Shown here piece after piece: positions 23,483 to 64,000 of a DNA stretch of 64,000 nt. This DNA is from Alphaproteobacteria bacterium. Its GTDB lineage: Bacteria; Pseudomonadota; Alphaproteobacteria; RF32; CAG-239. The position numbers and the translations under genes are program-made. The notes below the pieces were generated by a model. That model did no database searches, was not told the DNA's origin, and saw nothing but the letters and a program-made list of their open reading frames with translations. The stretch spans positions 53,700 to 117,699 of the forward strand of contig JAZULC010000018.1 in NCBI GenBank assembly GCA_045643605.1. The letters run 5' to 3'. The number at the start of each line of letters is the position of its first letter. Position 1 is the first letter of the stretch.

Positions 23483-23546
23483 AATTTACATAAATTTAAT
23501 ATTTATAAAGTATAACTTTCCATATTATACGTATAAAACTGTAAAT

Positions 23547-29500: not shown

Positions 29501-30824
29501 CGAATCTGCTACATTGAATGTAGATAACTGGAAGAAATCTGATGATGCTGTTGTTGAGGCTACTAAAAATTCTGTTTTCAAAGCCGGTAGTATCGCCGGA
29601 ACAATTCAAGCCGGAGCCGATATTGTTGTTGATGATCATAACGATACAACTTATGCCACAACTGATACCTTTGATGGAAATATTGATAATTTAAATCTGA
29701 CTTCATCTTTATATTTATTTAAAGCTTCAAAAGGTACTAATAATATATTGATGACTATGGTTGATGGCGGCTTTAAAGATGTAGAACAAGGTCAAAATGT
29801 CGGTGCATTTTTGAACAACAATTATAATGATAAAGATGATCGTCGTAGTGCTATGTTTAATAGAATTAAAGTTGCGGAAGATAAAAATAATTACGCAAAA
29901 ATTGTCAATTCTGAACTGGGATTAAGCTTTATTCCATCAATTACAAGACAGAATCTGGAATTTGCTCGTAATACTGCCGCTCAAGTAACAGATGCTATAT
30001 ATAGTAATGCAAAAGATAAACAAGCAAACTTTGTTGTCGGTGCCGATTATTATCACAATCGTAATTCTTCTACAGATACACAAATGGGATACGATTCTGA
30101 TGGTATAAATATTTACGGTGTTTATAACGAAAACTTAAATCCTTCTGTAAATTTAGGTCTGGGAGTATCTGTAGGCACAAATTACTCTGATTTTGATAAT
30201 GATTCAAATTCAAAACAAAATGTCGCTCAATTCTATATTCCTGTCACATTATCTACAGAAGAATTGTCATGGTTATTTATGCCGAGATTTGGTGTCGGAG
30301 ACGGAGAATATAAGAGATATGTTAAAGATGATAAAGCATATAAAGCTGACTTTACAACATATTATTACGGACTTTCAAATCAACTCCGCAAAGAATTTGA
30401 TTTAGGTTATATAACTATTGAACCTGTTGCTGAATTAAATATGTTGTCTATGTACACAAGCAAAATTAAAGAAAACAACAATCTTTATGTAAAATCACAA
30501 GATTCTGTTTCTATTGAGGGTGGTCTTGGACTTTATTTCACCAAAAAAGTTGATTTTACCAATGCATCAAAGTTACAGTTGCGCTTTGGTGGAACATATT
30601 ATAGGGAAATGGCTGATCCATATAGTTCTGTAACTGCCGGATTTGTGGATACTGATGGAACATATAAGATTCGCGGATATAAAAATGGCAGAGATAGAGG
30701 TGTTCTTTCTATGCAAGCAAATTATAATATAGACCAGTTTGATATATATGTAAAAGCTTCTCAATACATAGAAAAGAACAGCAATCTATTATTGCAAGCA
30801 GGTATGAAATATAATATTCAATAA
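23547..30824 (+). CDS. Giant autotransporter-type surface protein (~2,425 aa): signal peptide, ankyrin-like repeat, Gly/Pro linker, long degenerate-repeat passenger, C-terminal beta-barrel
   Basis: - Signal peptide M(GFL)MKKFIAVITAFSFLFAHRVYA.
- NANGNTGLCVAIYRGDQRAYNTFRAAGANP fits the ANK consensus.
- Dozens of ~40-45-aa units of the form ITNxGTIxG...GIxLxSS...ATIxNNxGATISGGxYGIxS.
- The last ~280 aa have alternating beta-strand patterns typical of an autotransporter barrel.
- The ORF-track start at 23427 overlaps yejB and was rejected. Confidence 0.85.
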   Translation: MGFLMKKFIAVITAFSFLFAHRVYAYGLAPEDFNKMYSLAHAGKVYSLREAVHRGLNIDAVNANGNTGLCVAIYRGDQRAYNTFRAAGANPYHRCTNVIPTEQYENFMSSSRVIGVKETPRLAYNVIHTGYLWSPKFWTLASLGAVGIGVAAFSGGGGGGSSSPAPAPEIYNSLGTKIGTMEYIPAEDSEGSASTTKNLIFAIYSGLKQKEGEVEEIPNVLWVSEDYDPTAVVNSYKAISKPLSYADRIMVAYKMTDGLSANAQTNGNSLSNGQAAYVVSGWKTVKTKTEESSEPEFLTTYSTLRHTGAISMQSVSNAVYGIIASNLATAYNGDEGSSNGTISMSVLPEEYTSNTVIGMYADTGASIINGKQGKIKASLDTQSSSASGNDIVAENSVAGMVVGIIGPHLTDLPEGYSTEEEPREVINIAKNLGTINFELKDSAITRCLMNMIGMGSYLSTSASAYYLQTDKTELTNSGLISLLYYYVEDDDSTLLLSSGSILTSNGLQGTIGMRADTNTTATNTKSGIISINGIKDQSAGMLAVNGGTLINEGEIKVTPDPDDKNKYLAYGYGLVSLQGTRTGGSEIINNGTVTVSQNAIYSDTDVTITNGSNGKLTSIGAEAIRITDGAIETTITNKGTIEATAAKQYGIYSEAVETTNIDNSGTISSLRGSTDNYTIYSSSENVDLINSGTIIGPAGIKTDGSRTVNVVNTGTIESTSTISSGANDGIAINGSKNVTIQNEGTITGRCPIWIQDVLNDGITNIYNTGEIKVTDAYTALTVNNKKDNIIKEINIYNGATLINDELQECTDCAPTISDGQTSAISLDGTILAATINNYAKATLSGGSGIISSAKTNTINNSGIIKSTSGRGINLTSSAEDSYAEITNNGGATISSSGSSIYSSAKTTDIKNLGTIKSTNDNGIYLYSYPSSPISFTIINGDDGKYAEVSGLANGIYSVAISNTIRNYGKITGTNGTNSTGISLGNSITGSTVEIINYANATISGGKNGIYSYTITNTIENSGIITGSNSSGIYVETSKEGSDATITNNTGATVSGGDYGIKSNAITNTIKNSGAVTGSNSSGINLTSYVNTATIENYDGATIFSGTKGIDSSAVTTTIYNYGTITGDDEIGINLTSKVSKAEINNGDKDNHNATISGLSYGISSSAITNTITNFGTIEGTGTSAHGIQLMSSVADSNATITNNTGATISGGDYGISSNAFINTIKNFGTIKSTSVGAGSSGQLSGIYLKSSVAGSAENINTITNNINAIIFGSKYGIYYDAKIKALINNYGNIGKYNYANISYENGIHLTSNVSEATVNNGDENNHNATISGGTYGIYSQAENTTIDNYGTINGDNDGIHLISSAEDSSATITNSGTISGNDDGIYSNALKNTITNSGTIEGYYNNGIHLTSSEQGSKAEITNNAGATISGGTYGIYSRAENTTVDNYGIITGDNNGILLSSDNPATVTNYYGGKISGENGIAFSTDTALAYNYGTISATNNGITSQSYDTTINNYGTIESDTIGINLDEGIDATINNGDEDYADATISGDYGIVSGAITNTIENYGTITGSGEDGIHLISSAEDSSATITNSGTISGNDDGIELEEITTATITNNTNATISGDYGIYSKIVTNELSVNNYGNVTGGIEGIYLLSSVNNANITNYAGATILGDNYGIDSNAKYIAVNNFGNIEHKDISDNVVNNYGIYLTSDTNAATINNGNEYNHTATISGKDYAIYSRAANTTVNNYGIINGEINIGMGQVTNEASGVITISKSGSYGIYVTDGKSILNKAEATNKGTINVNGDNSYGMYAGGYSQATNKGTINVNGDNSYGMYADKAFATIYNHGSIYVTGNNSYGMSVSGSAVATNYGTIYYSPGSYCKNGSVSSMGGSCVEYTPSAAAPRLLTLNMMSLAAPMTEDSLASEQESESSDNPMPKAKSYALMVDNSGILQNNGSVYLGTNPDDASYIGSNAKIINNGLMAADESATLNVDNWKKSDDAVVEATKNSVFKAGSIAGTIQAGADIVVDDHNDTTYATTDTFDGNIDNLNLTSSLYLFKASKGTNNILMTMVDGGFKDVEQGQNVGAFLNNNYNDKDDRRSAMFNRIKVAEDKNNYAKIVNSELGLSFIPSITRQNLEFARNTAAQVTDAIYSNAKDKQANFVVGADYYHNRNSSTDTQMGYDSDGINIYGVYNENLNPSVNLGLGVSVGTNYSDFDNDSNSKQNVAQFYIPVTLSTEELSWLFMPRFGVGDGEYKRYVKDDKAYKADFTTYYYGLSNQLRKEFDLGYITIEPVAELNMLSMYTSKIKENNNLYVKSQDSVSIEGGLGLYFTKKVDFTNASKLQLRFGGTYYREMADPYSSVTAGFVDTDGTYKIRGYKNGRDRGVLSMQANYNIDQFDIYVKASQYIEKNSNLLLQAGMKYNIQ
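27615..27700 (+). repeat. Intragenic exact repeat, copy 1 (86 bp)
   Basis: GACGGAATACATTTAATATCATCTGCTGAAGATTCCAGCGCAACTATTACAAATTCAGGAACAATTTCCGGTAATGATGATGGTAT is identical to 28269-28354. The offset is 654 bp and in frame. Confidence 0.9.
28269..28354 (+). repeat. Intragenic exact repeat, copy 2 (86 bp)
   Basis: Identical to 27615-27700 by direct reading. Confidence 0.9.
28929..29053 (+). repeat. In-frame tandem duplication (72-bp period, 53-bp identical cores)
   Basis: GCAACCAATAAAGGTACAATTAATGTTAATGGTGACAATTCCTATGGAATGTA occurs at 28929-28981 and again at 29001-29053, encoding ATNKGTINVNGDNSYGMY twice. Confidence 0.9.
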
Positions 30825-45706: not shown

Positions 45707-45804
<98 letters not shown>

Positions 45805-45824
45805 ATTTGACAATTTAGGATTAG

Positions 45825-46184: not shown

Positions 46185-47102
46185 ATGATGAAATCGGAAA
46201 AATCACAAAAACCTATTGTCAAAGAGAAAAGCAAAAGAGCCTTCAGCGCCTTCATAAATAATGTTTCTTGGTGGTGGAACGTAATAAATTTTGAGTTGGA
46301 TAATAGTTATATATATAAAAGAATTAAAACTGTTACGTATAAAAATGGGAAAACATCACAAATAATCACTCTTCCTAACGTACCCAGATGGAAAGATGTT
46401 ACCAGAGTACAAAAAGGTGCATATTTTGCCAAATTTTTAGCTGAAAGCAAAGAATTTTTGACCTTAAAACCATTTTCTTTGGATTTTACATATACATTAC
46501 ACGATAGATACTGTACAAACAAATTATCAGTGATACGGGATGAGTTCAGTAAAAAAATATATAATAATTTACGCCAGCATGGCAAACAACATATCGAGAT
46601 GGCGTATTGTATTGAAGGAAGAAGTAAAAGATTACACTGTCATGGTTTTATAGATAAAGAAAATTTGGGCGATTTTACGAATCTCTTGAAACAATCTGCT
46701 TGCTCCACTAGAAATGAATATAAAGAGATTAATTACAATAATATGCTTAAATTTTCTGAGTATTCTTATCAAAAAAGCGGTGGAAGTTATGGGTGGTACT
46801 GCTACATCCACAAAGGATCACACTCTGAAAATGCATTTCACCTTTCACATTCTTTATTGATTAGGATCCGAGATGAGTATGAAAAGCTTTATGAACAATA
46901 TATTGTAAGAATTAAACAACTGGAAGCAGAAGGTTTTAAAATACGTTACAAAGACGCTAAACAAAAAGAATATCATAAACGATTTAACATTTGGAAAGAC
47001 ATAGCAAGATTATATAAACAAACAAATACAATATTTAAATCATATATATCAAACACAAGTATTTATCATACGTATTTAATCAAACCACCACCGCTTATTT
47101 AA
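46185..47102 (+). CDS. Hypothetical protein, possible HUH-type Rep/relaxase (Inovirus Gp2/YfjJ-like?)
   Basis: 305-aa ORF. MAYCIEGRSKRLHCHGFI contains an H-C-H (HUH-like) motif, and a downstream WYCYIHK fits YxxK. The assignment is tentative. Confidence 0.45.
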   Translation: MMKSEKSQKPIVKEKSKRAFSAFINNVSWWWNVINFELDNSYIYKRIKTVTYKNGKTSQIITLPNVPRWKDVTRVQKGAYFAKFLAESKEFLTLKPFSLDFTYTLHDRYCTNKLSVIRDEFSKKIYNNLRQHGKQHIEMAYCIEGRSKRLHCHGFIDKENLGDFTNLLKQSACSTRNEYKEINYNNMLKFSEYSYQKSGGSYGWYCYIHKGSHSENAFHLSHSLLIRIRDEYEKLYEQYIVRIKQLEAEGFKIRYKDAKQKEYHKRFNIWKDIARLYKQTNTIFKSYISNTSIYHTYLIKPPPLI

Positions 47103-48070: not shown

Positions 48071-51000
48071 TCATTCTAGTGCTATTAGTTTCTTAATGAA
48101 ATCCTCATCATCTTGGAAAAATACATTATGATCTTCAAAATCTTCTTTATTCCAATCACCACGCCAATTAACTTGTCTAATGTTGGTATTGGAAATTATG
48201 GCTGAATTCAAAATCACGTTGTCATCATTCAAATCACGTTCTAATATTTTGATTCGCTTATGGAAAGTTATTTTGGTGTCGTTTTGACCATCCAAATTGC
48301 GAATACCCTTTGGATCAATAAAGGTTATATACTGTTTATTGTCTTTTACATGCCATAGAATAAAGTCTGGATAAAAATTTCCTTCCTCAAAGAAACCTAT
48401 ACCATTACCTCTACTACGATTTCTTAAGAGATAGAATTCATCATTGGCATATTTTTGTTTGTTTTTATTGTAATATTCCCTCAGCTGTTCCACAAACTTT
48501 GTTTCCCCATCATTCAGTGCCACAGGTTTAACTTCTATAACTTCATTGTTGTTCAATGACAATATCGGATTATATAAATGTGTTTGGAAGTACATTGACT
48601 TACCAAATGGAAAATCAAAATCTTTTAGTTGTCCTGACTTTATCAGATCAATAAGCTGACTGATCTTATGAATTACATCCATTGCGCTTTCTTGAATATA
48701 CACTCTGTACTCATCAATAAAGTTAGAATCTTCTGGCGTTAGCTCCTGATATACAAGTTTATCTTTTTCCCAATCTGATTTCTTGTAAAAATAAAATCTT
48801 TCACAGTATTTTTTCAATAAAGACACTATGATATCGTATGTTCTATCAAAGACGGAGAAGCTACTGAGATATAAATCTTCTCTTGGAATATACAAAGTGT
48901 ACCAATCATTGTGCTGGAATATTTCTTTTATCTCATCCACGCTCAAATTCAAGTTATACCAAGATTTCTCAGCCTTAAAATCTTGCATTTCCAGATATAT
49001 TTTATTCCAATCAATAAATGCTAAGTTATCGGCAGGAATTACATTTTCTTCTTTTTGATGTATAACGCCATCGGCAACACCTTTTGCTTTGATTGCTTGA
49101 ATCTTCGGATACCAATCAAGTACAACCTTGTTACGTGTTAAATATTCAAGATATTCCAGATTTGGTTTATCACCTTGTTTTTTGAAATCTAATCCTTCTT
49201 TTAATTTGATTACTTTGAGTTTTGTTTTCTTTGGCAAGTCACTCTTCAAAACAGGTATAATGTACTCTTCCTTTACATTACTACCAGATGGAAGACCTTC
49301 ATTTTCCAGATATTCCCTGAACTGACGCATATAATCTGCTCTAACACCGAATATATTAAGTGTTTCAAGATGTCGGATGATTCTGGCTTTATCATTTGAA
49401 AGATTCAGCGATTGAAGTGCAGATGTTCTTTTCAAACTGTTTTCATATCCTTTTAAGCGAACACCGCGTCCAAACAATTGAATAATTTCTGATCCTTCTG
49501 ATTTACCAATATTCATAAGTCCCATTGTGCTAACTCTAAAGCAATCCCAACCTTCGGTAAATTTTTTAGAACCAATCAAAACATTAACTGGAGAAGAGTT
49601 AGAAGTAATGCTGTCAAATACCGAACCGCTGAAATTCTTATCTGAAATAATCAATTCTTCGTGAGTTTTGCATAATTTAATCAATTCGGCACTATCACCA
49701 ACATTTATCAGACCAAATGCTTCATTCGTTCCAATTCTTAGTGAAATCTCTCCACTTGCACCACTGAGGTTTTCAACGTGTAATGAAGCTGCCGACTTTG
49801 CGTGGAATACCTTTTGCAGTATTTCATCATATAACTGCTTTCCAAACAACTCACCGACAAACGAAAAAGAATTGGAAAATATATCTTTTCCAGTGTTATC
49901 AAGCAATCCTGTCTTTCCTGACACTAAGATGTTTAATAATTCTATGCTTTGTCGTTCATCACGTACAAATTCTTCCAAAAACAGCAAAATATCTAAAACA
50001 TCGGATACAGCTCTTTTATTTTCCGTCCTAACTGCTGTAACCGTGCCACCGACAAATATCCATAACGGTTTTTCTATATTAAATGCTGCAATCTGTGACT
50101 TATTTTCTTCCCATACCTTGAGCTGCTGGAAATATGACAACAAACACCCAGTTAAATACTTCTTCCTGGTTAATTCAATGCTGTCGTCTGCTAGATTGAG
50201 GATTTTATAGTCTTTTCCATACCCATCACCATAAAACCACTTATACGAATAATCAAAAATTGTTGCTTTAGCATATTCGTTTTCTATATTTTCTTTGTTG
50301 GCTGCTTTGACCGCTTGTCCTAATGTGGCTGAATATTCAAAAGCAAAACCTTCGGTGGAAAGTCTATCTCTCTTTTCTTTCCATTCGTTACCCTGAGTAC
50401 CCTTATGTACTTCATCAATCAGCACCAAATTGTTGTTTTCAAAAGAATCTACGGATACGGTTTTTTCCTTACCTTCTTCTTTTAACTTAGAAATTTCAAT
50501 AATCTCAACGGTGTTAGCAGAAAACAACTGTCCAGCTTTTTTATCAAAGATCTCAGCACCAATTCTGGAAATATTAAAGTTTGCCAAATGTTGTTTAGAC
50601 AACCCTTCGTTCGGCGTAATAAGTAAGATTTTGTTCAAAGATCCTGTTTTCTTGTACTTCTCCATATAAAATCTGTATTGCAAGATGTTCATATGCATCA
50701 GCAGCGTCTTGCCAGAACCTGTGGCATTCCAAATAGCTATTTTGGATAAATCGGCTAATGTGTAATCTGGTATATCTATAAAATTGAGTGAACCTGACTT
50801 GAACTGATTTAATTCAGCAAGAAAACCTTCTTTATCATTGAAAAACTTATCTAGATATATTTCAACAAATAGCAAACAAAGATACTGGAAATACTTCCAT
50901 TTAATTACATCTTTGCGTTTTCCTTGCATTGCTTTGGTATGTTTGGTGATATTCATATCATAAGCAAGCAGAATGTCTTTATTTAATTTAGTAGACGTTT

Positions 51001-51190
51001 CAAATTGTTCGGTATCAACCAATCTTTTGTAGAAATAGCTGATTTGATTTTCATTCCACCCTTCTTTAACATCGGATAAAACTTTTGCAACAGATTCAAA
51101 ATCTTTGAAACCGATCTGATCAAGCATATAAGCATTGAGCATCAGCTTTTGTGCAAAAGGAATTTCCGTCTTTTTAATCTTCTTTGCCAT
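48071..51190 (-). CDS. ResIII-type SF2 helicase fused to a C-terminal PD-(D/E)xK nuclease (Type III Res-like restriction subunit)
   Basis: NATGSGKT Walker A, LIDEVHKG (DEVH box), QLFGRGVRL motif VI, and the C-terminal YPDFILWHVKDNKQYITFIDPKG (PD...DxK) at nt 48302-48373. The start ATG overlaps the upstream stop (TAATG). Confidence 0.85.
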   Translation of the reverse strand: MAKKIKKTEIPFAQKLMLNAYMLDQIGFKDFESVAKVLSDVKEGWNENQISYFYKRLVDTEQFETSTKLNKDILLAYDMNITKHTKAMQGKRKDVIKWKYFQYLCLLFVEIYLDKFFNDKEGFLAELNQFKSGSLNFIDIPDYTLADLSKIAIWNATGSGKTLLMHMNILQYRFYMEKYKKTGSLNKILLITPNEGLSKQHLANFNISRIGAEIFDKKAGQLFSANTVEIIEISKLKEEGKEKTVSVDSFENNNLVLIDEVHKGTQGNEWKEKRDRLSTEGFAFEYSATLGQAVKAANKENIENEYAKATIFDYSYKWFYGDGYGKDYKILNLADDSIELTRKKYLTGCLLSYFQQLKVWEENKSQIAAFNIEKPLWIFVGGTVTAVRTENKRAVSDVLDILLFLEEFVRDERQSIELLNILVSGKTGLLDNTGKDIFSNSFSFVGELFGKQLYDEILQKVFHAKSAASLHVENLSGASGEISLRIGTNEAFGLINVGDSAELIKLCKTHEELIISDKNFSGSVFDSITSNSSPVNVLIGSKKFTEGWDCFRVSTMGLMNIGKSEGSEIIQLFGRGVRLKGYENSLKRTSALQSLNLSNDKARIIRHLETLNIFGVRADYMRQFREYLENEGLPSGSNVKEEYIIPVLKSDLPKKTKLKVIKLKEGLDFKKQGDKPNLEYLEYLTRNKVVLDWYPKIQAIKAKGVADGVIHQKEENVIPADNLAFIDWNKIYLEMQDFKAEKSWYNLNLSVDEIKEIFQHNDWYTLYIPREDLYLSSFSVFDRTYDIIVSLLKKYCERFYFYKKSDWEKDKLVYQELTPEDSNFIDEYRVYIQESAMDVIHKISQLIDLIKSGQLKDFDFPFGKSMYFQTHLYNPILSLNNNEVIEVKPVALNDGETKFVEQLREYYNKNKQKYANDEFYLLRNRSRGNGIGFFEEGNFYPDFILWHVKDNKQYITFIDPKGIRNLDGQNDTKITFHKRIKILERDLNDDNVILNSAIISNTNIRQVNWRGDWNKEDFEDHNVFFQDDEDFIKKLIALE

Positions 51191-51981
51191 TATTCTGTCA
51201 CCGTTCCATCTTTAATATGATATTTTATCTTTTTCTTTTTACAAAAGCTTATTACTTGTTCGCTTAGTAAATTGTAAAATTCTTTATGTTGTTTATATTT
51301 TGATACTTCGGCATTATAATTGGTTCTTCCGAAAATTATTTTATCAACAAAAGATATTTTATCCAAGATCTGTTCTATATTTTGATCTATTAGGTTAGGT
51401 GTTGGATAAGGTTCCATACTTACCCACGTTTTACAGCCTTTAAGGTGTAAATTATAAAGAGCATTTAATCTTTCTTCATATCTTGCTGATCCTGGTTCAA
51501 ATTGCTCTCTATATTTCTCATCCAATGAAACCAAGGTAACACCGTACTCATTCTTCTTAGAATATTTGGATAATTCAATTGGTAACACACCTTTTGTTAG
51601 AACAGTACATTTAATATTTGCATTATTAAGTTTTTGTATAATTTTTAAGCTCATATCTTGAACTTCGTTGAATCCATACATAAAAGGATCTGATGAAAAA
51701 CAGAGATGTACTGATTTGATTTTATCCTTATACTTGGGAATTTCTTTATCAAGTAAATCCAAAGCATTTACAACTAATTTCGGTTCAAGCCATTCTTCAT
51801 AACTTTTAACTTTTCCAAACCTTTTAGCCATTAAAAAAGCATAGCAAGGATATTTACAACCATGTGCACAGCCTTGGATATGATTTATTGTATAATCACC
51901 ATACTCTACACCAGTTTTGTAAAGTAATGTTTTACGTTCAATATATCGAGTAACTTTTTTATCTATCATCTGACTAACCAT
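51190..51981 (-). CDS. Three-Cys-motif, radical-SAM-like protein (SplB/DUF5131-like TIM-barrel class), partner of TcmP
   Basis: YTINHIQGCAHGCKYPCYAF: the Cys residues at nt 51870-51844 are spaced CX3CX3C, one residue longer than the canonical CX3CX2C. 263 aa, with an 8-nt overlap with the TcmP-like gene. Confidence 0.7.
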   Translation of the reverse strand: MVSQMIDKKVTRYIERKTLLYKTGVEYGDYTINHIQGCAHGCKYPCYAFLMAKRFGKVKSYEEWLEPKLVVNALDLLDKEIPKYKDKIKSVHLCFSSDPFMYGFNEVQDMSLKIIQKLNNANIKCTVLTKGVLPIELSKYSKKNEYGVTLVSLDEKYREQFEPGSARYEERLNALYNLHLKGCKTWVSMEPYPTPNLIDQNIEQILDKISFVDKIIFGRTNYNAEVSKYKQHKEFYNLLSEQVISFCKKKKIKYHIKDGTVTE

Positions 51982-52810
51982 TCAATATATAATCAGCTAC
52001 CTTTTGTGCTAATCCCCAGGCTTTTTTTGATGGATTTGATACAGCAAAGCATAAAAGAAATAGAGGAGATTTTCTGGAATTATATAGTATTCTGTTTTTA
52101 TTTGATACAAATGGGAATTCTTGTTTTAATTTTTTCTGGATATATTGCACTAATTTATCTGTACTTTCCTTCACAACGTCCAATTCTCCGAACAAATTGC
52201 CTTGTGGACTTTCGCTGTACATTTCTTTTTCCCAGGAATCATCTCCAAACACCTGATTCAATTTATTTTTCCAACTCTCATCTATCTTTCCATCTCTTTT
52301 AAGCAATCTTGTTGTTGCAGAAAGAGGGAACAAATACCACAAATCTATGCTTTGTGTATTTTTTATCGCAGTTAAGACATCCCAGGAAACTTGCATAGCA
52401 CAAGGATCTAGAAACAATAAAGCTCGTGAAGCTTTCCAATCTATTTGAGAACATAATCTTTTGACCTCTGTTCCAGCATCTCCTTGAATTATATCAACCT
52501 TACTTGCTCTATCTGGATATTTAGTGGCAACAATCTTTCTCAGTTCTTGGCATTTATTTGGATCTAATTCTATAAAATAATAGTGATCAAATTCTTCTTT
52601 AGCACTCAAAGCTATTTGTACAGAGCCTTCTATATCAAAAGTTTCCCATTGATCTCCAATATCAATACTTCCTGTGCCAGCAAAAGCGTCTATATAAATT
52701 TTCTTAAACCGTTGCTTTTTTAGTGCCTGAACGTAAAAATTCAAATAATCTGAAAATATGTTTAACTTTTCAATTGTCCAACGCCCACCAAATTGTTGTA
52801 ATTGCGCCAT
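51974..52810 (-). CDS. tcmP: Three-Cys-motif partner protein TcmP-like (methyltransferase-fold-like motifs)
   Basis: FGGRWTIEKLNIFSDYLNFY...IYIDAFAGTGS...GSVQIAL...YYFIELD...LLFLDPC...DLWYLFP matches my recollection of the TIGRFAM TcmP family layout. It lies adjacent to a three-Cys protein, as that family is defined. Confidence 0.7.
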   Translation of the reverse strand: MAQLQQFGGRWTIEKLNIFSDYLNFYVQALKKQRFKKIYIDAFAGTGSIDIGDQWETFDIEGSVQIALSAKEEFDHYYFIELDPNKCQELRKIVATKYPDRASKVDIIQGDAGTEVKRLCSQIDWKASRALLFLDPCAMQVSWDVLTAIKNTQSIDLWYLFPLSATTRLLKRDGKIDESWKNKLNQVFGDDSWEKEMYSESPQGNLFGELDVVKESTDKLVQYIQKKLKQEFPFVSNKNRILYNSRKSPLFLLCFAVSNPSKKAWGLAQKVADYILNG

Positions 52811-52812
52811 CT

Positions 52813-55800
52813 CTACACATCCTTTACATCAAACATTCTTTTGAGAAATTCGGCTTCGGTTAGACGAACTTTCCACGTTTCATCACCTTTACGAAGGTTT
52901 TCAAGGTTGTTGTTGCCATTCACATAAATTGTATCAAATTCCATATCCAGTGTAGAATAGTTTTGTTTTTCAAACCAATTATCCAGAGTTTGATTATCTA
53001 CCACACTGGTATCACGCCACAAGACAAGAGTCTTTTCTCCAGCACGTGTTCTGCCCTCAATAGCAACAATTTCTTTGGATTTACGAATGCTTTCCACATT
53101 CAGACCAATTAAATAGTTAAATGTTTCTACCAAATCCACTTTGACAGTTTTTGTTTCTCCATCACGAGTGATTTTCATTTCATAATCAAACGGATGCTCA
53201 AAGTCAGAAACGTTTAATAAAGAACCTTGTGTTTCCAAATCCATCATATAGTTCAAGATGTATTCTTCTTTGATTTCTTTATTCTGTGGTTTGCTCAACA
53301 AGTCGCTTTGCTGTGCACTGCGTTCCACTTTCAAGTTATCTAAGGCATCTTCATATGATTCCAAACGGATGTATTTGAAACAATGGCTTGAACCCTTACG
53401 AGAAACAGGCTTACCGTCTTTCCAGTCTTCAGAATAAATGACTTTTTCAATACGAGGTTTAGTAACTAAATCAAAGTAGTTACCCATTTCAACCATAATG
53501 TATTTTCTTTTTCCATCATCTTGACGATTTGAGTTAATAACTGCGTGACCAGTCGTTCCAGAACCCGCAAAGTAATCCAGAATATATTCTGATGGCTGCA
53601 AGTTAATAAAATCTGCCACAGTATAAACACTTTTTACAGTATTTAAAGAAATGTCATAATTTACAAAATTTTTCATCATTTCTTTAACAAATTCTGTTCC
53701 ATACTCAGGATTGGCGTAAAGAGGTGAAACCCAAGTGGTTTTTGGTATTTCTCTTTCATAGGCAGGAGTATATATGGCATTATTTTTTGCAATATAAGTA
53801 TTACATTCGTTGGATACTCTAGGATATTCTCTTTGCCATACCAATTTTGTGCCATCATCCATTTTTGGTAGAACAAACACAAATCCTAAACGTGTATATT
53901 TTTCTTCTAATTGTTTAACATATAAATCATCAAATATTCCTGTTTCTTTTGAATATATCTTTTGGTATTCGTCTTTTTCAATTGTAAAAACGCTATTATT
54001 CTTAATTAACATAGGGTAATATCTATATGGACGTTCTTCTCTTCTGGAATTCGTGCCTGTCCTTTTCAAGGGTACCATTGAAGATTTTTTATCACGCTTT
54101 TCTACCCTTAATTCTCCTATACTTTCTTTATTTTTTGCGTAAATCACGTGGAAATCTGATATTTTATTGTTTTTATCCGCAACTCTTCCTTGAGGATTAC
54201 AAATTACAGTGATTATTGATATATAATTATCTTTTGAAAAAACATTGTTATTTATATAGCATAAGTTATTAAGTTCTATATCGTCAATTGCTTGATAGAT
54301 TAAACCATCATCAGACATCAACTTCTTTGCAATAGTCAATCTATTTTCATAAAGAGAATTCCAAGAACTGTCTTTATAATCGTTTTTATATATAATTGGA
54401 GATGATGCTGTATTATACGGGGGATCAATGTATATGCACTTTACCCGTTCTTTGTACTTTTCTTGCAACAAATTCAATGCTTGGAAGTTTTCACTATGAA
54501 TCAACAAACCATCACATTGCTTGTCAAAATCATCAATAGATGCCAACAACTTGTATTTGAATTCGGTATCAAAAAATGCCGTGTCTAACACCAAAAACGG
54601 ATTATTTTTCAAGAAATCTATGGTCAATTTACCTGAATATTCTTTGATTTCATCAATAGCAAACAGTTTGATCCATTCTTCTTTTTGTTTTTCATTAGCC
54701 ACAATTGCTGGATACAGCTCTTCTGGCACTCTATCAAGGGTAATGCAGTAGTTCGTTTCCAAAACAAATTTCTTTTTGAGCCATATTTTCTTTTGAAAGT
54801 TCTCCAATGATGATAAAAATTGAATAATCTTACGAGCAACACGGCGTAAAACCTTAATTTTACCAAGATATTGTTCAACTTTAGCTTCTGTTTCGCTGTC
54901 AATATCATCCAAGTGCATAATTTCGTTTTTGATGTAAAAATCAAGCTCTCGGTTCAAGAACTTGCCCAAATCCTTATGAATAAAGTAATCAAACGTGCTT
55001 TTGGCAGTGAAATTATTGATGTGCTTTAACAAAACAGTCATTCTGTTCTTTTCGGAGCCTGTTAATTTACTTAATTCACCGAAAATAGGCATTAAAACAG
55101 CATTTTTAAGCAATACGTCTACAGATTGTTTGTTTAATTCTTCTTGTTTAGGAGCTCCTTCCTCAGGCAAATAACTAAATAAAATAATAAATTCACCATT
55201 CTCTAATCTTACAGGATGTTCTTCTAATAGTTTGAAGCGTCTGTTTTTATCATCTTTGTTATTATTTTGTTCTGTTGTTGCAGAAACCACCTCAAAACGA
55301 ACTTTGTAATTACCTGCTTTAAATGTATAATTTGTTAGTGTCTCTCCTGATTTTATATAATATTGGTCTGCATTTGCCCAATGGAGCTTAACTTCTTCAC
55401 CCTCATACGGAAGAGCATACACACCTTCTTTGTAACGGCGAAGAGACATAAAGTCACCTTCGGAATAATAACGTTTAAAAAAGTTATAAAGGTCAGAATA
55501 AATCCCGTTCTCAACTTTTTCGGCATCAAACACAGAGGTTAATTTTGCCTTAAGCTCTTTTACTTTTGGCATAGTATCTGGATCAACACCCAGATCTTTT
55601 GCTGCTTTTATGGATTTATCTAAATCTTCTTGAATGGACTTATTATCACTGGATACGTATTTTGCCAATCCTTCTTTGACTTGTGGAAGCAAATCATTAT
55701 CAATGAATTGCGTTACTTCCTGTGACTTTAGATTCATAATCCGATACAAACCAAAATCCAGATCATTACGATCAAGCTGAAAAATTTCTCTTAATTTTCC

Positions 55801-55824
55801 TTGTAATTCTTCAAAAGCAGACAT
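52813..55824 (-). CDS. Site-specific DNA methyltransferase, beta-class N6A/N4C (Type III Mod-like), with a ~440-aa uncharacterised N-terminal region
   Basis: Motif IV IYIDPPYNT (DPPY at nt 54415-54426) precedes motif I DYFAGSGTTGHAV (nt 53557-53571), with ~280 aa (a putative TRD) between them. AAGAGG RBS upstream. Confidence 0.9.
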   Translation of the reverse strand: MSAFEELQGKLREIFQLDRNDLDFGLYRIMNLKSQEVTQFIDNDLLPQVKEGLAKYVSSDNKSIQEDLDKSIKAAKDLGVDPDTMPKVKELKAKLTSVFDAEKVENGIYSDLYNFFKRYYSEGDFMSLRRYKEGVYALPYEGEEVKLHWANADQYYIKSGETLTNYTFKAGNYKVRFEVVSATTEQNNNKDDKNRRFKLLEEHPVRLENGEFIILFSYLPEEGAPKQEELNKQSVDVLLKNAVLMPIFGELSKLTGSEKNRMTVLLKHINNFTAKSTFDYFIHKDLGKFLNRELDFYIKNEIMHLDDIDSETEAKVEQYLGKIKVLRRVARKIIQFLSSLENFQKKIWLKKKFVLETNYCITLDRVPEELYPAIVANEKQKEEWIKLFAIDEIKEYSGKLTIDFLKNNPFLVLDTAFFDTEFKYKLLASIDDFDKQCDGLLIHSENFQALNLLQEKYKERVKCIYIDPPYNTASSPIIYKNDYKDSSWNSLYENRLTIAKKLMSDDGLIYQAIDDIELNNLCYINNNVFSKDNYISIITVICNPQGRVADKNNKISDFHVIYAKNKESIGELRVEKRDKKSSMVPLKRTGTNSRREERPYRYYPMLIKNNSVFTIEKDEYQKIYSKETGIFDDLYVKQLEEKYTRLGFVFVLPKMDDGTKLVWQREYPRVSNECNTYIAKNNAIYTPAYEREIPKTTWVSPLYANPEYGTEFVKEMMKNFVNYDISLNTVKSVYTVADFINLQPSEYILDYFAGSGTTGHAVINSNRQDDGKRKYIMVEMGNYFDLVTKPRIEKVIYSEDWKDGKPVSRKGSSHCFKYIRLESYEDALDNLKVERSAQQSDLLSKPQNKEIKEEYILNYMMDLETQGSLLNVSDFEHPFDYEMKITRDGETKTVKVDLVETFNYLIGLNVESIRKSKEIVAIEGRTRAGEKTLVLWRDTSVVDNQTLDNWFEKQNYSTLDMEFDTIYVNGNNNLENLRKGDETWKVRLTEAEFLKRMFDVKDV

Positions 55825-55833
55825 TTCAACCTC

Positions 55834-58641
55834 TTAAATTAGCTTCCATCTAAATGTAAATAATTGTTCTTGCGTTATTTTAGCGTTCATATGTTGACGC
55901 AGATTCTCAATGAGTTCTTTACGTTCCAACTCAATTTCATCTTCAACATCAAAGATATTCTGCCTTAAGCGCCTTTGTTTGCGCTCCAAAGCCGCAATCT
56001 CTTCTTCTAACACAACTTTTCTTTCTATATTTTCTACAGCCCGAACTTCTCTTTGTAAAGACTTAATTTTACTTTTTGTATCTCTTAATTCCTTCTCGGC
56101 TGCATATAACTTATCGTCGGTATAACGATCGATTTTATCACTTTCTTCTTGGAAAAATGCATTATTTCTGTTTTCGGAAAGCCGTTTTGTCTTCTCAATG
56201 TTGTCGTTTTGAACTTTGGTCAGGTTCTTTTCTTCAATATCAAGAAGATCACGTTCTTTTGAAACGCTGGCAACATCCAATTTGATCATTTCTTCTAACG
56301 TTTCGGAATCAACATTGTTCTGGAAATTATCAATACCAGACAGAACCAAATACTCCTCCTCTTCAAAGCTCTTAATCTTGAGTAAATGGCACGTACACCA
56401 ACCAGTTATACGCTCATCACACATTTTTTGAAGATAACTGTGTTTCCGTGGACTATTTGTTACATTGAAAACAAGCTCATCCAAATTGCTTGTATCGCTG
56501 TTTTTAGCCGTTGATAATATTTTTTCTCCAAGCGGATGGGACAATCTCAGGATTACATCATTACTTAAATCAATATGTTTATCAGTTTGGGTTATAAAAT
56601 AGTACTTCTGGCACATTCCTAATTGTTTGTTTTTCAAGGTAAATGACAACTCATAATCATCAAAATCACCGTCATCCTTGAGAATCGTCTTAGCCAAACG
56701 CCAAAACATTTCCTGCCGTTCGCTAAGCTGTATTTTTGTTTCTTCCAAACTGACTTTTAATCTTTGATGAACCGATGCGTCAAATTCATTCAACAGTTTC
56801 TGCTTTGTCTGGCGCATTTTCTTATCAATGCTTTCTTCCATTTCTTTTTGTAAAGCATCAAAAGCAGCTTCTATCTCTTTGTTAGTTCGGCAGGTTTGAT
56901 AGATATTGAGGATCTTCTTTTCAAAGTCGACACCATCTTCTATACTTCCAAGAATTTCGTCTGAAGCTCCAAAAACACCTTCAAACAGTTTGAATTTTTC
57001 GCTTAATAACTCAAAGACTCGCCGATCTGCTGGGTTTTTCTTGTTTACAAAGTTGATTACCACAACATCAAACTTTTGTCCGTAACGATGACATCTTCCA
57101 ATTCTTTGTTCAACACGCTGAGGATTCCACGGTAAATCATAGTTTATAAGCAAAGAACAGAACTGCATATTAAGACCTTCTGCACCAGCTTCAGTGGCAA
57201 TCATAATCTCAGCTTTGTTTTTGAACTCATCCATAAGATCATTACGTTTTAATTTGTTGCCACCGTAGAATTGTACAATCTTACCGTTATAGCCGTGAGC
57301 ACTTAAGTATTCGAAGAGGTACTTCTGTGTACGTCGGCTTTCTGTAAATATTAACGCTTTTCTAGGAGCTCCCATCTTTTCCATTTCAGCAAAACCAATT
57401 TCAATGGCTTTTAATAATTCAACTGTTTTGTTATCATATTTGATCGTACTTGCTAATTTTAAATAACCTTCAATCTGTTCAATTTCGTGATCCAATTGCT
57501 CCATATCTATTGATGAATCTTCTTTTTCAACAGTTTCTTCAATTTCTTCTGGAGATTGTTCATCATCAAGATCAGCTTCAGCAATCAAATCCTCAAGTAT
57601 TTCATCTTCTTGTTCAGTTTGTTGACCTGCTTTTAACTTCTTTAATCTTTCCAACATGGTAGAAAACGTACCGTATATGGCATTTGATGAAGAAGCCAGC
57701 AATTTATACAGAATCAGTGATATTAAATGTCTTTGTCTTGGTGGTATAGCATACAAATTTTCATTTTTTAGAAATTGAGCAACCTCTTCATATAGCTTTT
57801 GTTCGTCCTGTGAAGGTACAAATGGAAACGTAATCGGTTTTCTTTGTGTGTATCTAATATATTCCAGCACATTGGAACGTAGCGTTCTTCTGCAGAAACA
57901 TTGCAATCTTTTCTTTAAGGATTCATAACCAACAGCAGACGTAACATATTGCATTCTAAATGATCTGTCATCACCGAATATATTATCATCAATCAAACTG
58001 CTTAAACCATATAATTCCATTAAAGAGTTTTGCAAAGGTGTAGCTGTCAATAGAAGTTTTTTACGATCTTTCAATGCACGAGATATCACTTGTCCAGTTT
58101 TATTGCTTTCTTTATATACGTTACGTAGCTTATGCGCTTCATCAAAAACCACCAGATCCCAAGCTACGGTTATTAAATCCTGTTCAATTTTTGCAGCCAT
58201 ATTATAGGATATTATAATCACTTTATCCGTTAAGGACAACAATTTGGGAATATAATTCTTTCTTTCCAGAATAACGGCATCCAAACTAAACTTCTCTTCT
58301 AATTCAGTTTTCCATTGCTCTCTGAGTGACGCTGGACATATTACCAGTAGATGACGTTTCCTTTCTGCCCAGTACTGACATAAGACAATACCAGCTTCAA
58401 TAGTTTTTCCGAGACCAACTTCATCAGCCAAAATTGATCCTTTAGAAAGTGGTGATTGCAAAGCAAAGGAAGCAGCTTCAATCTGATGAGGATTCAAATC
58501 GACTTGTGCGTCCATCAAAGCCTGAGAAAGACGTCCTAAATTATTATCCTTGTTAAGCCGTGTCAATTCATAAGCAAAATATTTAGCTTGTTGTTTAGTT
58601 AAAATATCTTTATGTAACAGATTTTGAACCATAGTAATCAT
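55834..58641 (-). CDS. SNF2-family helicase with a ~390-aa C-terminal extension whose last ~150 aa look coiled-coil-rich (DISARM DrmD-like)
   Basis: ADEVGLGKTIEAG Walker A, VVFDEAHKLRN, LLLTATPLQNSL and DLPWNPQRVEQRIGRCHRYGQ motifs. The longest ORF starts at a TTG at 58677; ATGs at 58641 and 58632 are more plausible. Confidence 0.9.
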   Translation of the reverse strand: MITMVQNLLHKDILTKQQAKYFAYELTRLNKDNNLGRLSQALMDAQVDLNPHQIEAASFALQSPLSKGSILADEVGLGKTIEAGIVLCQYWAERKRHLLVICPASLREQWKTELEEKFSLDAVILERKNYIPKLLSLTDKVIIISYNMAAKIEQDLITVAWDLVVFDEAHKLRNVYKESNKTGQVISRALKDRKKLLLTATPLQNSLMELYGLSSLIDDNIFGDDRSFRMQYVTSAVGYESLKKRLQCFCRRTLRSNVLEYIRYTQRKPITFPFVPSQDEQKLYEEVAQFLKNENLYAIPPRQRHLISLILYKLLASSSNAIYGTFSTMLERLKKLKAGQQTEQEDEILEDLIAEADLDDEQSPEEIEETVEKEDSSIDMEQLDHEIEQIEGYLKLASTIKYDNKTVELLKAIEIGFAEMEKMGAPRKALIFTESRRTQKYLFEYLSAHGYNGKIVQFYGGNKLKRNDLMDEFKNKAEIMIATEAGAEGLNMQFCSLLINYDLPWNPQRVEQRIGRCHRYGQKFDVVVINFVNKKNPADRRVFELLSEKFKLFEGVFGASDEILGSIEDGVDFEKKILNIYQTCRTNKEIEAAFDALQKEMEESIDKKMRQTKQKLLNEFDASVHQRLKVSLEETKIQLSERQEMFWRLAKTILKDDGDFDDYELSFTLKNKQLGMCQKYYFITQTDKHIDLSNDVILRLSHPLGEKILSTAKNSDTSNLDELVFNVTNSPRKHSYLQKMCDERITGWCTCHLLKIKSFEEEEYLVLSGIDNFQNNVDSETLEEMIKLDVASVSKERDLLDIEEKNLTKVQNDNIEKTKRLSENRNNAFFQEESDKIDRYTDDKLYAAEKELRDTKSKIKSLQREVRAVENIERKVVLEEEIAALERKQRRLRQNIFDVEDEIELERKELIENLRQHMNAKITQEQLFTFRWKLI

Positions 58642-58732
58642 CTTTTTGTTAAACCTGTTAAATAGTATAAAAGACAATCTTCTAAAACATTATTAATATT
58701 TGCCATAGAAATGTATTTTTGTAATTAATAGC

Positions 58733-59410: not shown

Positions 59411-60397
59411 TTATTTCTTCTCTATTTTCTTTTCAATCGTTTTGAGCGATTCTAAATAATCTTTTTCAGCAGCACTCAAGGTTTTGGCTTGATATTTTTG
59501 ATATTCCTCTTTGGCTTTGTTGACGGCTTTTTGGTGAGATACAGAACCTGCACCTTGCAACAAATCTTCTCCTGTTGCTGTTAAAATCTTGTCTAAATGC
59601 TCAGCCCAATCTTTCATCGTCATTGCCTGATGGCGTTCCGCTTGGCGTTCAGCAAAATCTAAATACCCTGAAACAATTTGTCCCATCGTGCGCAGTTCTT
59701 TTTCATCTAAATAATTTTTAGCAATGACAGCATCTGATAAATGTGGTTCTTGCCCCTTAAAAGTTGTTAATCCCATAAATTCTTTTTGTGCATCAGCACG
59801 ACTGTAAATAATTTCAGCAGCCGTTTGGTGACTAACCGCATAATGGATCTTGTTTTGAACTTTTTTGAAGAACTCAACAGAGGTATCAGCATTCGGATCA
59901 TAATCTATACTGGTCGCATATATATCTAAAACCTGACGATAAAAAACCTTTTCGGATGCTCTAATATCCCGAATACGTTCCAAAAGTTCGTGCCAATATC
60001 CACCACCTCCGAGATTCTTCAAACGATCATCATCCATCGCAAAGCCTTTAATCATATATTCTTTTAAGATTTGCGTTGCCCAAATACGAAATTGCGTTCC
60101 ACGTAAAGATTTAACACGATAGCCAACGGAAATAATCACATCCAGATTGTAATATTTTACATTATAATCTTTGCCGTCAGAGGCAGTTGTCAAGAAATCC
60201 TTTACAACTGAATCTTCAACTAATTCCTGCTCTTTGAAGATATTTTGGATGTGAGAACTGATATTTTGTTTGGTTGTCTGCAGCAATTCGGCAATCTGTG
60301 CCTGATTGAGCCAAACCGTATCATTATCAATTTTGACATCAATTTTAGTTTTGCCATCTTGAGTTTGATAAATGATAATATTGTTTTCTTCAGTCAT
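59411..60397 (-). CDS. rhuM: RhuM-family (virulence/Fic-DOC-associated) protein
   Basis: The N-terminus IIIYQTQDGKTKIDVKIDNDTVWLNQAQIAELLQTTKQNISSHIQNIFKEQEL is the characteristic RhuM HTH region. 328 aa. Confidence 0.85.
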   Translation of the reverse strand: MTEENNIIIYQTQDGKTKIDVKIDNDTVWLNQAQIAELLQTTKQNISSHIQNIFKEQELVEDSVVKDFLTTASDGKDYNVKYYNLDVIISVGYRVKSLRGTQFRIWATQILKEYMIKGFAMDDDRLKNLGGGGYWHELLERIRDIRASEKVFYRQVLDIYATSIDYDPNADTSVEFFKKVQNKIHYAVSHQTAAEIIYSRADAQKEFMGLTTFKGQEPHLSDAVIAKNYLDEKELRTMGQIVSGYLDFAERQAERHQAMTMKDWAEHLDKILTATGEDLLQGAGSVSHQKAVNKAKEEYQKYQAKTLSAAEKDYLESLKTIEKKIEKK

Positions 60398-62364: not shown

Positions 62365-63585
62365 TTAGGCAGCAATGTTGTTTATATTATCATTATCACC
62401 CAAATTTTTACTCATAACACTAATTGAAATATCAGCATCACTCATTTTATTCAATACAATTGCAGCACTCGATAAATTCTCTGGAGCCAGATGAGCATAA
62501 CGTTCTGTCATTCGAATACTTTTGTGTCCCATCAGTCTTTGTACAACATATAAAGCCACACCTTCTTGGACTAACCAACTAGCATATGTATGGCGAAGTG
62601 TATGGAAAACAACACGGTTTTTATCGTCTTTAATACCGTTATTCAATCCAAGATAATCGACTGCTCTGGCAAACGAATCTGATACCTCTTCAATTTTAGT
62701 ACCTTTTGTTGATTTAAATACATATTCACCATTTTGTAATGATTTTGCATTCAAAATACGACATACTTCATCCGTCATATTGGCAAAACGGTCTGAACCA
62801 TTTTTGGGATTACGTATTGCTATTTGTTTGGTTTCCATATTAACATCTTCACCCATTATATTAAAGATTTCACCAGCACGAAGCCCCATATGAAGTGAAA
62901 AGAGAGAGATTTCATACAACTGTTCACTACGTCTCCGTAATTCACTTAAAAGTTTTTTGGCTTCAACTGGTGTCAAAAAGCGTAATCTGTCATTGTTTAA
63001 CGTATATAATGTGAAATCGTCATACGGGTTAGTTCCAACAAATACTCCAGATTTTTTTGCACAATTAAAAATATAAGAAACAGTTACTATTGTTTTGTTT
63101 ATAGTTGCATTTGCTAATCCATCTTTCAGCATAGCTACGTTTACCTTTTTTAAATCACCAGATATAACGTCTTTTAGAGGTTTTTTACCAAATAATTTAT
63201 CATAGTATGTGTTGAAGTCGTGATTTTCCTGATTCTTTTTCTTTTCTTTCTTTTCATAAAGATAATTTTCCGTGTAACCTCCCAAAAACCATTCCCGAAA
63301 AGTCATAGATTCATTTCTTTTCTTGGTTTCCAATTCACGCTTTTCTCTTAATGATGTAGGATTTCCGTTTGCAAGTCTGATATTGCTTTTGATTTCGCAA
63401 AGAGTTTCCATCGCCTTAAGTTTAGTCATACCTTCTGAAGCCCAGCCTAAACCTTCTTCGATTCCTTTTTTATCTTTTTGATACCTGATTATATAATATC
63501 TATCTTTTGAAACGCCGTTTTTTCTTGTTTCGTGTTCTCTATAATAAACACCTTTATAATTTTTTGATTTAATGCGTTTTGGCAT
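62365..63585 (-). CDS. int: Tyrosine recombinase/phage-type integrase
   Basis: C-terminal catalytic blocks LRAGEI, HTLRHTYASWLV and GHKSIRMTERYAHL (R, HxxR, H, Y). 406 aa, located 183 bp from attR. Confidence 0.95.
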   Translation of the reverse strand: MPKRIKSKNYKGVYYREHETRKNGVSKDRYYIIRYQKDKKGIEEGLGWASEGMTKLKAMETLCEIKSNIRLANGNPTSLREKRELETKKRNESMTFREWFLGGYTENYLYEKKEKKKNQENHDFNTYYDKLFGKKPLKDVISGDLKKVNVAMLKDGLANATINKTIVTVSYIFNCAKKSGVFVGTNPYDDFTLYTLNNDRLRFLTPVEAKKLLSELRRRSEQLYEISLFSLHMGLRAGEIFNIMGEDVNMETKQIAIRNPKNGSDRFANMTDEVCRILNAKSLQNGEYVFKSTKGTKIEEVSDSFARAVDYLGLNNGIKDDKNRVVFHTLRHTYASWLVQEGVALYVVQRLMGHKSIRMTERYAHLAPENLSSAAIVLNKMSDADISISVMSKNLGDNDNINNIAA

Positions 63586-63768: not shown

Positions 63769-63839
63769 CGCATTCGTAATGCGTGGGTCAGGTGTTCAAA
63801 TCACCTAATCGGCACCAGATTTTTCAAGGGTTTTGAGAG
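63769..63839 (+). repeat. attR-type direct repeat (displaced tRNA-Thr 3' fragment)
   Basis: A 71-bp copy of 45734-45804 with an A at 63800. It lacks the tRNA 5' half, so it is not a functional tRNA. Confidence 0.9.
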
Positions 63840-64000
63840 TTTTCCAGAATCCTTTTATTTTGCTCGGATACTTTTACTTATATTTTCCTCAAATATTAAT
63901 GGCTTGACATGAGCTATATTGTAGCAAAATATAATTTTTATAAAAAAATATTGCAAACTTTGTTTAGTAGAATAAAATCTACAACAAATAAGCAAGTGAG

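Follow-up and report, generated by a model that had tools for sequence, protein, structure and literature searches.

TcmP and a radical-SAM-superfamily partner as a mobile two-gene module captured by a type III-like restriction-modification operon

Described relatives and the operon in the window

Proteins of the TcmP family encoded beside a partner with a cysteine motif have been catalogued since TIGRFAMs and are found among the candidate systems of PADLOC. The described pairs combine TcmP (TIGR04474) with a three-Cys protein of PF07505 (DUF5131, formerly Gp37/Gp68), and PADLOC lists related pairs as the candidates PDC-M41 and PDC-M30; in the literature, TcmP, DUF5131 and PDC-M41/M30 were found only as incidental table entries, and no paper on their function was found. 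Here, we analyze such a pair from contig JAZULC010000018.1 of an Alphaproteobacteria bacterium (positions 53,700 to 117,699, a stretch of 64,000 nucleotides hereafter called the window), in which a TcmP protein and a protein of the radical S-adenosylmethionine (SAM) superfamily, termed rSAM, are encoded inside a type III-like restriction-modification (R-M) operon.

The window pair shares several features with the described ones: its TcmP is a full member of the family, it is followed by a protein of ~250 aa whose cysteine motif ends in CYA, and the pair occurs in defence-island and embedded contexts. However, the partner carries a CX3CX3C motif, compared to CX6CX2C in the DUF5131 example presented below, falls under the PF07505 gathering score and belongs to a separate, tightly conserved family. 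Regarding PADLOC, component A of PDC-M41 matches the window TcmP strongly (PDC-M41A, 303 bits, E 8e-91), while component B matches rSAM weakly and only in its N-terminal part (PDC-M41B, 25.8 bits, E 1.4e-6), so that PDC-M41/M30 were apparently built on DUF5131 partners.

The five genes of the operon are all located on the minus strand, in the order SNF2, Mod, TcmP, rSAM and Res:

55834..58677, minus strand: SNF2-family helicase, DrmD-like, 947 aa, first core gene (PF00176 and PF00271; NF038318 DrmD_b 642 bits, cutoff 950)
52813..55824, minus strand: type III-like Mod DNA methyltransferase, 1003 aa, part of the host operon and outside the pair (PF01555 69.5 bits; PADLOC MTase_III 747 bits)
51974..52810, minus strand: TcmP, predicted RlmJ-like class I SAM-dependent methyltransferase-fold protein, 278 aa (TIGR04474, PADLOC, AlphaFold2, Foldseek)
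51190..51981, minus strand: rSAM, radical-SAM-superfamily protein with CX3CX3C, 263 aa (PF04055, AlphaFold2, Foldseek)
48071..51190, minus strand: type III-like Res helicase-nuclease, 1039 aa, part of the host operon (PF04851 ResIII; PADLOC REase_III 646 bits)

The genes are tightly packed, with 2 nt between the Mod stop and the TcmP start, an overlap of 8 nt between the TcmP and rSAM open reading frames (ORFs), and one base common to the rSAM stop and the Res start (TAATG). An earlier reading of this DNA, made from the sequence only, had described two overlapping ORFs of 278 and 263 aa between Mod and Res, and they are present as described, including the strings GCAHGCKYPCYA in rSAM and IDAFAGTGS and LFLDPC in TcmP. 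When the operon was scanned for promoters and terminators, neither exceeded the shuffle expectation.

The host operon carries Mod and Res together, as a type III R-M system does, and both are strong on the PADLOC type III models; it differs from classical type III R-M by its conserved SNF2 gene. This helicase is most similar to the DrmD of class 1 DISARM. DISARM itself was rejected, as the DrmD_b score of 642 bits stands against a cutoff of 950 and DrmA, DrmB (DUF1998) and DrmC are absent from the operon; MANTIS/Gao_RL was rejected because its gene set differs (AAA+ ATPase, co-regulator, methyltransferase and helicase-nuclease). No named system corresponding to SNF2-Mod-Res was found.

Small units placed between the genes of methylation systems and co-oriented with them are also known, such as PrrC, PARIS and the entries designated HEC in PADLOC-DB. 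PrrC is embedded in the EcoprrI hsd locus and acts as a back-up when restriction is disabled, PARIS acts against Ocr, and the SoFic and PARIS-like ATPase plus DUF4276 families act on proteins or tRNA. The window pair resembles these accessory genes in its placement; however, they comprise ATPase/nuclease, Fic or anticodon-nuclease units, and none of them is known to combine a methyltransferase-like protein with a radical SAM protein.

Families, motifs and predicted folds

The identification of the 278-aa protein as TcmP by the sequence-only reading is borne out by TIGR04474, on which it scores 192.2 bits (cutoff 53) over profile positions 1-253 of 263; in the Pfam scan it had no match, the RlmJ family included. 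Searches of both proteins against all PDB chains, by single sequence and by family profile, returned no meaningful sequence match, for rSAM not even to spore photoproduct lyase (SPL), and consequently fold comparison alone is informative. The AlphaFold2 model of TcmP, with a predicted local distance difference test (pLDDT) of 87.6, has RlmJ (6QE5) as its best Foldseek match (E 1.8e-8, template modelling (TM) score ~0.5), and the top twelve PDB fold matches are all RlmJ and its DUF519 relative (E ~2e-8, 12-14% identity).

RlmJ, the 23S rRNA A2030 N6-methyltransferase (6QE5, 4BLV; former DUF519), resembles TcmP in the Rossmann core, motif I, an N-terminal helix and a motif IV resembling the D-P-x-aromatic type. 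Besides these similarities, there are differences: the identity is 12% with a TM score of ~0.5, TcmP is an accessory and not a housekeeping gene, its motif IV reads DP[Y/F/C], compared to DPSY in RlmJ, and its long forms carry a C-terminal extension of ~110 aa. The methyltransferase-like motifs already pointed out from the window sequence proved to be family-wide, as D41-A-F-A-G45-x-G47 (SAM motif I), E81, D111 and D135-P136 (motif IV) are invariant. DP is followed by Tyr or Phe in the majority of members, and by Cys in the window protein and a minority of others. TcmP is thus predicted, from its model and these motifs, to be a class I methyltransferase fold with SAM motif I and motif IV, and by the same model-based comparison it would be related to RlmJ.

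The TcmP proteins encoded upstream of rSAM occur as a short form of ~289 aa and a long form of 370-420 aa, the latter having the additional C-terminal extension. Both forms are only faintly similar in a home-made hidden Markov model, but all seven long forms scanned are genuine TIGR04474 members, and the eight upstream partners scanned on that profile score 89-236 bits in all eight cases (cutoff 53). A Pfam scan of the extensions produced one borderline GMT-wHTH match, the other six being without credible match. TcmP diverges far faster than rSAM, as the short and long forms are barely alignable whereas their rSAM partners are >55% identical.

Concerning the 263-aa protein, it had been proposed to be radical-SAM-like, with a Pro inserted in an SplB-type signature, and to be checked against two profiles. 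PF04055 is passed (44.6 bits, gathering score 29.5, residues 32-208), whereas on PF07505/DUF5131 the score of 24.6 bits stays under the gathering score of 28.9 and only the N-terminal 110 residues align. The protein is also under the cutoffs of the COG1533-type families (51 against 360 for PA0069, NF033668; 48 against 430 for Rv2578c, NF038135) and of the "mobile pair B" radical SAM family TIGR04470 (43 bits against 410). The rSAM family is matched by no curated family model, and it is separate from PF07505 and nearer to the COG1533 (PA0069/Rv2578c) group. Its relatives are annotated as "DNA repair photolyase" by JGI.

The rSAM proteins lack the canonical CX3CX2C motif and possess CX3CX3C instead, family-wide, the motif GC[AS]HGC.[YF]PCYA being found in 185 of 186 full-length close relatives, so that the spacing is no sequencing artefact. 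The cysteines are C38, C42 and C46, and the inserted Pro is P45; in an alignment of 48 rSAM sequences, C38, H40, G41, C42, P45, C46, Y47 and A48 are invariant, as are DPF 98-100, LTK 128-130 and SxEP 188-191. D98, LTK, S188, E190 and P191 are common to rSAM, PA0069-type and DUF5131 proteins. When the motifs are aligned directly, the window protein reads GCAH---GCKYPCYA, the divergent relative L061 ACAH---SCRY-CYQ, a phage PA0069-type protein GCSH---NCKY-CYA and a true DUF5131 protein GCTKISPGCMN-CYA, so that the Pro is a one-residue insertion relative to CX3CX2C, within the signature context GCxHxCxY-CYA that the window protein and the PA0069-type protein have in common. Among the representatives at 50% identity, CX3CX3C is present in 84 and CX3CX2C in 21 more distant ones (36-51% identity); as the latter motif is kept in distant sister clades, the Pro insertion is a derived trait of one large clade.

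The AlphaFold2 model of rSAM has a pLDDT of 89.2 and a predicted TM score of 0.87. Its best Foldseek match is the SPL SplB (4FHC; E 3.6e-8, TM 0.67, 15% identity), in agreement with the proposed superfamily, and all 40 PDB matches at E<=0.001 are radical SAM enzymes, as for a partial TIM-barrel fold, with a viperin-like enzyme among the weaker ones (TM 0.47). A fold search with rSAM in BFVD found generic viral radical SAM proteins only. SPL, which acts on DNA, shares this partial TIM barrel with rSAM; meanwhile, rSAM is ~80 residues shorter, and compared to SPL and COG1533 proteins it has the Pro insertion in the cluster loop, an obligate TcmP partner and a sporadic distribution on mobile elements instead of a sporulation or housekeeping role. 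From the model, rSAM would be of the COG1533/SPL lineage.

A word-indexed search with rSAM gave 7,778 matches at E<=0.001, counted as clusters at 90% identity, the best 120 having 66-99% identity; at 50% clustering, the family has 163 representatives at E<=1e-30. Genome loci were obtained for 75 relatives, most of them 54-70% identical, from Bacillota, Coriobacteriia, Nitrospirota, Patescibacteria, Spirochaetota, Cloacimonadota, Planctomycetota and Desulfovibrionaceae. The family is tight and widely transferred, with ~55-74% identity across Bacillota, Actinomycetota, Nitrospirota, Patescibacteria, Spirochaetota and Alphaproteobacteria, a conservation that may fit an invariant substrate.

Coupling of the pair and its genomic company

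A gene of the TcmP superfamily lies directly upstream of rSAM on the same strand in 63 of 73 genome loci, the other ten being mostly contig ends or disrupted ORFs, and the order TcmP then rSAM is strict. The two are also found as single-chain fusions (P0265, 634 aa; P0273, 592 aa). In another protein, P0264 (1002 aa), the rSAM domain is at the C-terminus, and its 748-aa N-terminus has no detectable match to the TcmP profile by hhalign. In seven loci (L019 at 7938-9970, L022, L025, L026, L028, L029 and L031), tandem TcmP paralogues of 379 aa and then 289 aa precede rSAM, followed by Mod (709-814 aa) and Res (~960 aa) where the contig extends, L025 ending at rSAM. In the upstream paralogue, SAM motif I is degenerate (DCMCNSG), and this copy may therefore be non-catalytic. 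TcmP and rSAM form a self-contained, translationally coupled and horizontally mobile two-gene module, sometimes fused.

The neighbours of the pair within two or three genes were surveyed in 46 non-redundant loci. They include ResIII, N6_N4 methylases, type I HsdR/HsdM/HsdS, type III Mod/Res, Eco57I-like and type ISP fusions, AlwI, BrxL and BrxA (BREX), a PLD-SNF2 helicase and a UvrD-PD(D/E)XK helicase-nuclease. A limited seed set detected an R-M or BREX-type gene within ~8 kb in at least 16 of the 46 loci, usually adjacent and co-oriented, so that the proposed R-M or defence setting is supported by an enrichment next to R-M and BREX genes. The pair has been repeatedly captured by methylation-based defence operons, in a promiscuous association.

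Other contexts are more diverse. The pair follows Mod-Res in a GmrSD/AbiEii/reverse-transcriptase island, is alone in an integrase island, follows an AEP-TOTE helicase and a DUF1016 gene, and is found beside UvrD or beside a SocA/Panacea gene. Y-family polymerase and UvrD neighbours occur in a few loci, a nucleoside hydrolase in one, and one pair is carried by an element resembling an integrative and conjugative element (ICE), with orphan Dcm and N6_N4 methylases, SSB and pilin genes. In phage genomes, rSAM had two close matches, both in metagenomic fragments without annotation, and TcmP had a few distant ones; a mainly phage-encoded role was set aside owing to this scarcity. In Collinsella/Coriobacteriaceae (L049-L059, L071 and L073), a conserved block of hsdM, hsdS, a 187-aa Cys-rich protein, hsdR, long TcmP (408 aa) and rSAM was observed, with a 487-aa protein having a Gly/Ala-rich segment upstream.

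Only close relatives, with rSAM identities of 74-91%, repeat the complete five-gene order of the window, and they do so with different flanks. In L012, the pair is placed upstream of a Mod with 45% identity. The closest five-gene cassettes, L079 (15535-17360) and L080 (11827-16368), have several ankyrin-repeat proteins in their flanks; that of L079 adds DUF3768, GmrSD and Fic genes, and that of L080 a second small radical SAM gene adjoining an AAA ATPase. The ankyrin-repeat flanks, together with ~32% GC, hint at a host-associated or intracellular bacterial lineage.

Metagenomic loci with Mod homologues of 41-68% identity, 80 in number (L090-L169), were searched for the other four genes. SNF2 is upstream of Mod in 66 of the 80, and 58 loci have SNF2, Mod and Res. 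The contig includes both Mod and Res in 66 loci; Mod abuts Res with nothing between them in 39 of these, and the gap exceeds 500 nt in the remaining 27. TcmP and rSAM occupy the gap in a single locus (L165), the other 26 insert loci being without the pair. The SNF2-Mod junction carries an insert in 11 loci. Among the inserts examined, the Mod-Res junction holds AAA_21 with DUF4276 (PADLOC HEC-01A/B, AriA- or PARIS-like), SoFic, NsnA/DUF262, PLD-like genes, DUF3800 and an HTH-M78 peptidase, and the SNF2-Mod junction holds DUF1016/PDC-S02.

SNF2-Mod-Res is a complete and widespread three-gene core, usually without the pair, its two junctions are insertion hotspots, or cargo slots, for defence genes, and TcmP-rSAM is an optional passenger, one of many alternatives in these junctions. 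In another locus (L102, 16245-18172), Res is directly followed by a TcmP of the long form (397 aa) and a classical DUF5131 protein (241 aa, CX6CX2C, 337 bits on PF07505), and as this pair lies beside the same R-M family, both classes of TcmP partner have been captured by it. The placement between Mod and Res had been taken as an argument for a DNA substrate. This argument does not hold, since the junction is a cargo slot that is mostly empty and, among the 66 loci, has received the pair only in L165; the pair is also found alone in ordinary chromosomal or ICE-like contexts, and its position thus says nothing on the substrate.

In the window, the whole operon is contained in an island of ~18 kb at tRNA-Thr, flanked by a direct repeat of ~75 nt, with these further features:

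45707-45782, plus strand: tRNA-Thr, one end of the island (ARAGORN)
45734-45808, plus strand: proximal direct repeat copy, ~75 nt, tRNA-Thr end of the island (repeat search and alignments)
59411-60397: RhuM gene of the island
62365..63585, minus strand: tyrosine integrase of the island, 406 aa (PF00589 100 bits)
63769-63843, plus strand: distal direct repeat copy with 2 mismatches, other end of the island (repeat search and alignment)

The island also holds several small ORFs without Pfam match. Just inside it, beside the tRNA, a 305-aa ORF at 46185-47102 (plus strand) has no Pfam match either; a 2465-aa ORF at 23427-30824 (plus strand) lies outside. In GC content, neither the island nor the pair stands out from the rest of the window.

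Possible activity of the module and competing explanations

The best reading is that the pair is an autonomous, SAM-dependent accessory module that modifies nucleic acid. The folds alone point to a nucleic-acid substrate, the best structural matches being a DNA-lesion lyase for rSAM and an rRNA base methyltransferase for TcmP. As a tentative proposal, with a likelihood a little short of even, both proteins would work together on nucleic acid, most probably DNA. TcmP would bind and present the target base, possibly also N-methylating it. Meanwhile, rSAM would hold a [4Fe-4S] cluster through C38, C42 and C46 and cleave SAM into the 5'-deoxyadenosyl radical, which would then abstract a hydrogen from the presented nucleotide, leading to a covalent change. 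The module would be expressed together with the R-M genes and may add a further layer of defence or epigenetic control, the change being either a mark on self DNA or damage to foreign DNA.

Several observations weigh against this proposal. No R-M neighbour was found in 30 of the 46 surveyed loci with the limited seed set, several contexts of the pair look like ordinary chromosome, phage genomes seldom carry the pair, and no rSAM homologue was found among the 72,556 plasmids of PLSDB at E 1e-20. The fold similarity is modest (TM ~0.5 to RlmJ and 0.67 to SPL, with 12-15% identity) and does not fix the substrate; an RNA target is also compatible with the data, as RlmJ acts on RNA. Moreover, the binding of a cluster and of SAM by the CX3CX3C loop is putative, and the Cys at the aromatic position of motif IV makes methyl transfer by the window TcmP uncertain. 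Finally, with SoFic and PARIS-like genes as cargo in the same slot, guilt by position fits a non-DNA effector equally well.

The last point leads to the explanation that survives best after the preferred one, although it is unlikely: a back-up effector, of the guard or abortive-infection type, that stays silent while R-M works and, once a phage disables restriction, hits RNA of the host or of the phage (rRNA or tRNA) or some other target that is essential. The company in the Mod-Res slot (AAA_21 with DUF4276 of the HEC-01/AriA-like type, SoFic, NsnA, PLD and DUF3800) is consistent with it, as are the rRNA methyltransferase that is the closest solved relative of TcmP and the attachment of the pair to many unrelated methylation-based systems. 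However, neither protein has a recognizable sensor or regulatory domain, no toxin-antitoxin-like signature was seen, and the conserved catalytic motifs and frequent stand-alone occurrence equally fit a constitutive pair of enzymes.

Quite improbable is a minimal radical-based system resembling R-M by itself, in which TcmP would recognize DNA and mark self while rSAM, by way of a 5'-deoxyadenosyl radical, would damage unmarked foreign DNA or change it covalently.

In another reading, the pair would be an integral component of the R-M system, adding or removing a DNA modification on which Mod and Res rely for self/non-self discrimination. The tight operon with overlapping genes and the five-gene order kept in relatives of 74-91% rSAM identity and in L165 would agree with such a role, but it is difficult to reconcile with 39 of 66 Mod-Res loci having no insert, 26 of the 27 inserts lacking the pair, the upstream placement in L012 beside a 45%-identical Mod, and the occurrence of the pair with type I, ISP, IIS and BREX systems or alone. 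This leaves the integral role with a low probability, and a role in repair or reversal is given the same one. Here, an SPL-like lyase directed by TcmP would reverse a DNA lesion, or strip a phage hypermodification so that restriction can act, as could be expected from SPL as the top structural match, from the "DNA repair photolyase" annotation of relatives and from the Y-family polymerase and UvrD neighbours in a few loci. Nevertheless, rSAM has only 15% identity to SPL and lacks ~80 residues of its length, remains below threshold for every curated COG1533-type family and is distributed sporadically on mobile elements, and an obligate methyltransferase-like partner is left unexplained.

A benefit to the mobile element, where a DNA modification would make the island or ICE resistant to the restriction systems of new hosts, is very unlikely: integrase-bounded islands and the ICE-like context with its orphan Dcm and N6_N4 methylases, SSB and pilin genes speak for it, against which stand the rarity in phage genomes, the missing match in the PLSDB plasmids, and the frequent location of the pair inside restriction operons, on the side of host defence. 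The least probable is a small-molecule route, in which a viperin-like rSAM would produce a modified nucleotide or nucleoside, either as a substrate for methylation by TcmP or as an inhibitor of phage replication, since its grounds (the precedent of radical SAM enzymes in defence contexts, a viperin-like enzyme among the weaker fold matches and one nucleoside hydrolase neighbour) are countered by a much weaker match than to SPL (TM 0.47 vs 0.67), by no kinase or nucleotidyl-transferase partners being seen, and by the borderline wHTH match in one TcmP extension, which fits a polymer substrate better.

Returning to the autonomous nucleic-acid-modifying module as the preferred reading, its meaning for these families can be outlined. 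What is new is a second and very large class of TcmP partner (>7,700 clusters at 90% identity), which arose from canonical radical SAM enzymes when a Pro, invariant in this class, was inserted into the cluster loop; the pair as an autonomous unit, sometimes one fused protein, recurrently taken up by methylation-based defence operons; and the recognition that a position inside an R-M operon is no evidence of DNA chemistry. Its compactness and conservation make the five-gene cassette well suited to clean comparisons in which the pair is kept or removed. If the CX3CX3C loop does bind a cluster, it would add a new variant to the ways in which radical SAM enzymes bind theirs, and if the R-M-like reading with radicals were true, it would represent a new immune effector chemistry, bolted onto type I, type III, ISP and BREX systems. 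Radical chemistry on DNA or RNA, if true, would be new enzymology for bacterial immunity or epigenetics.

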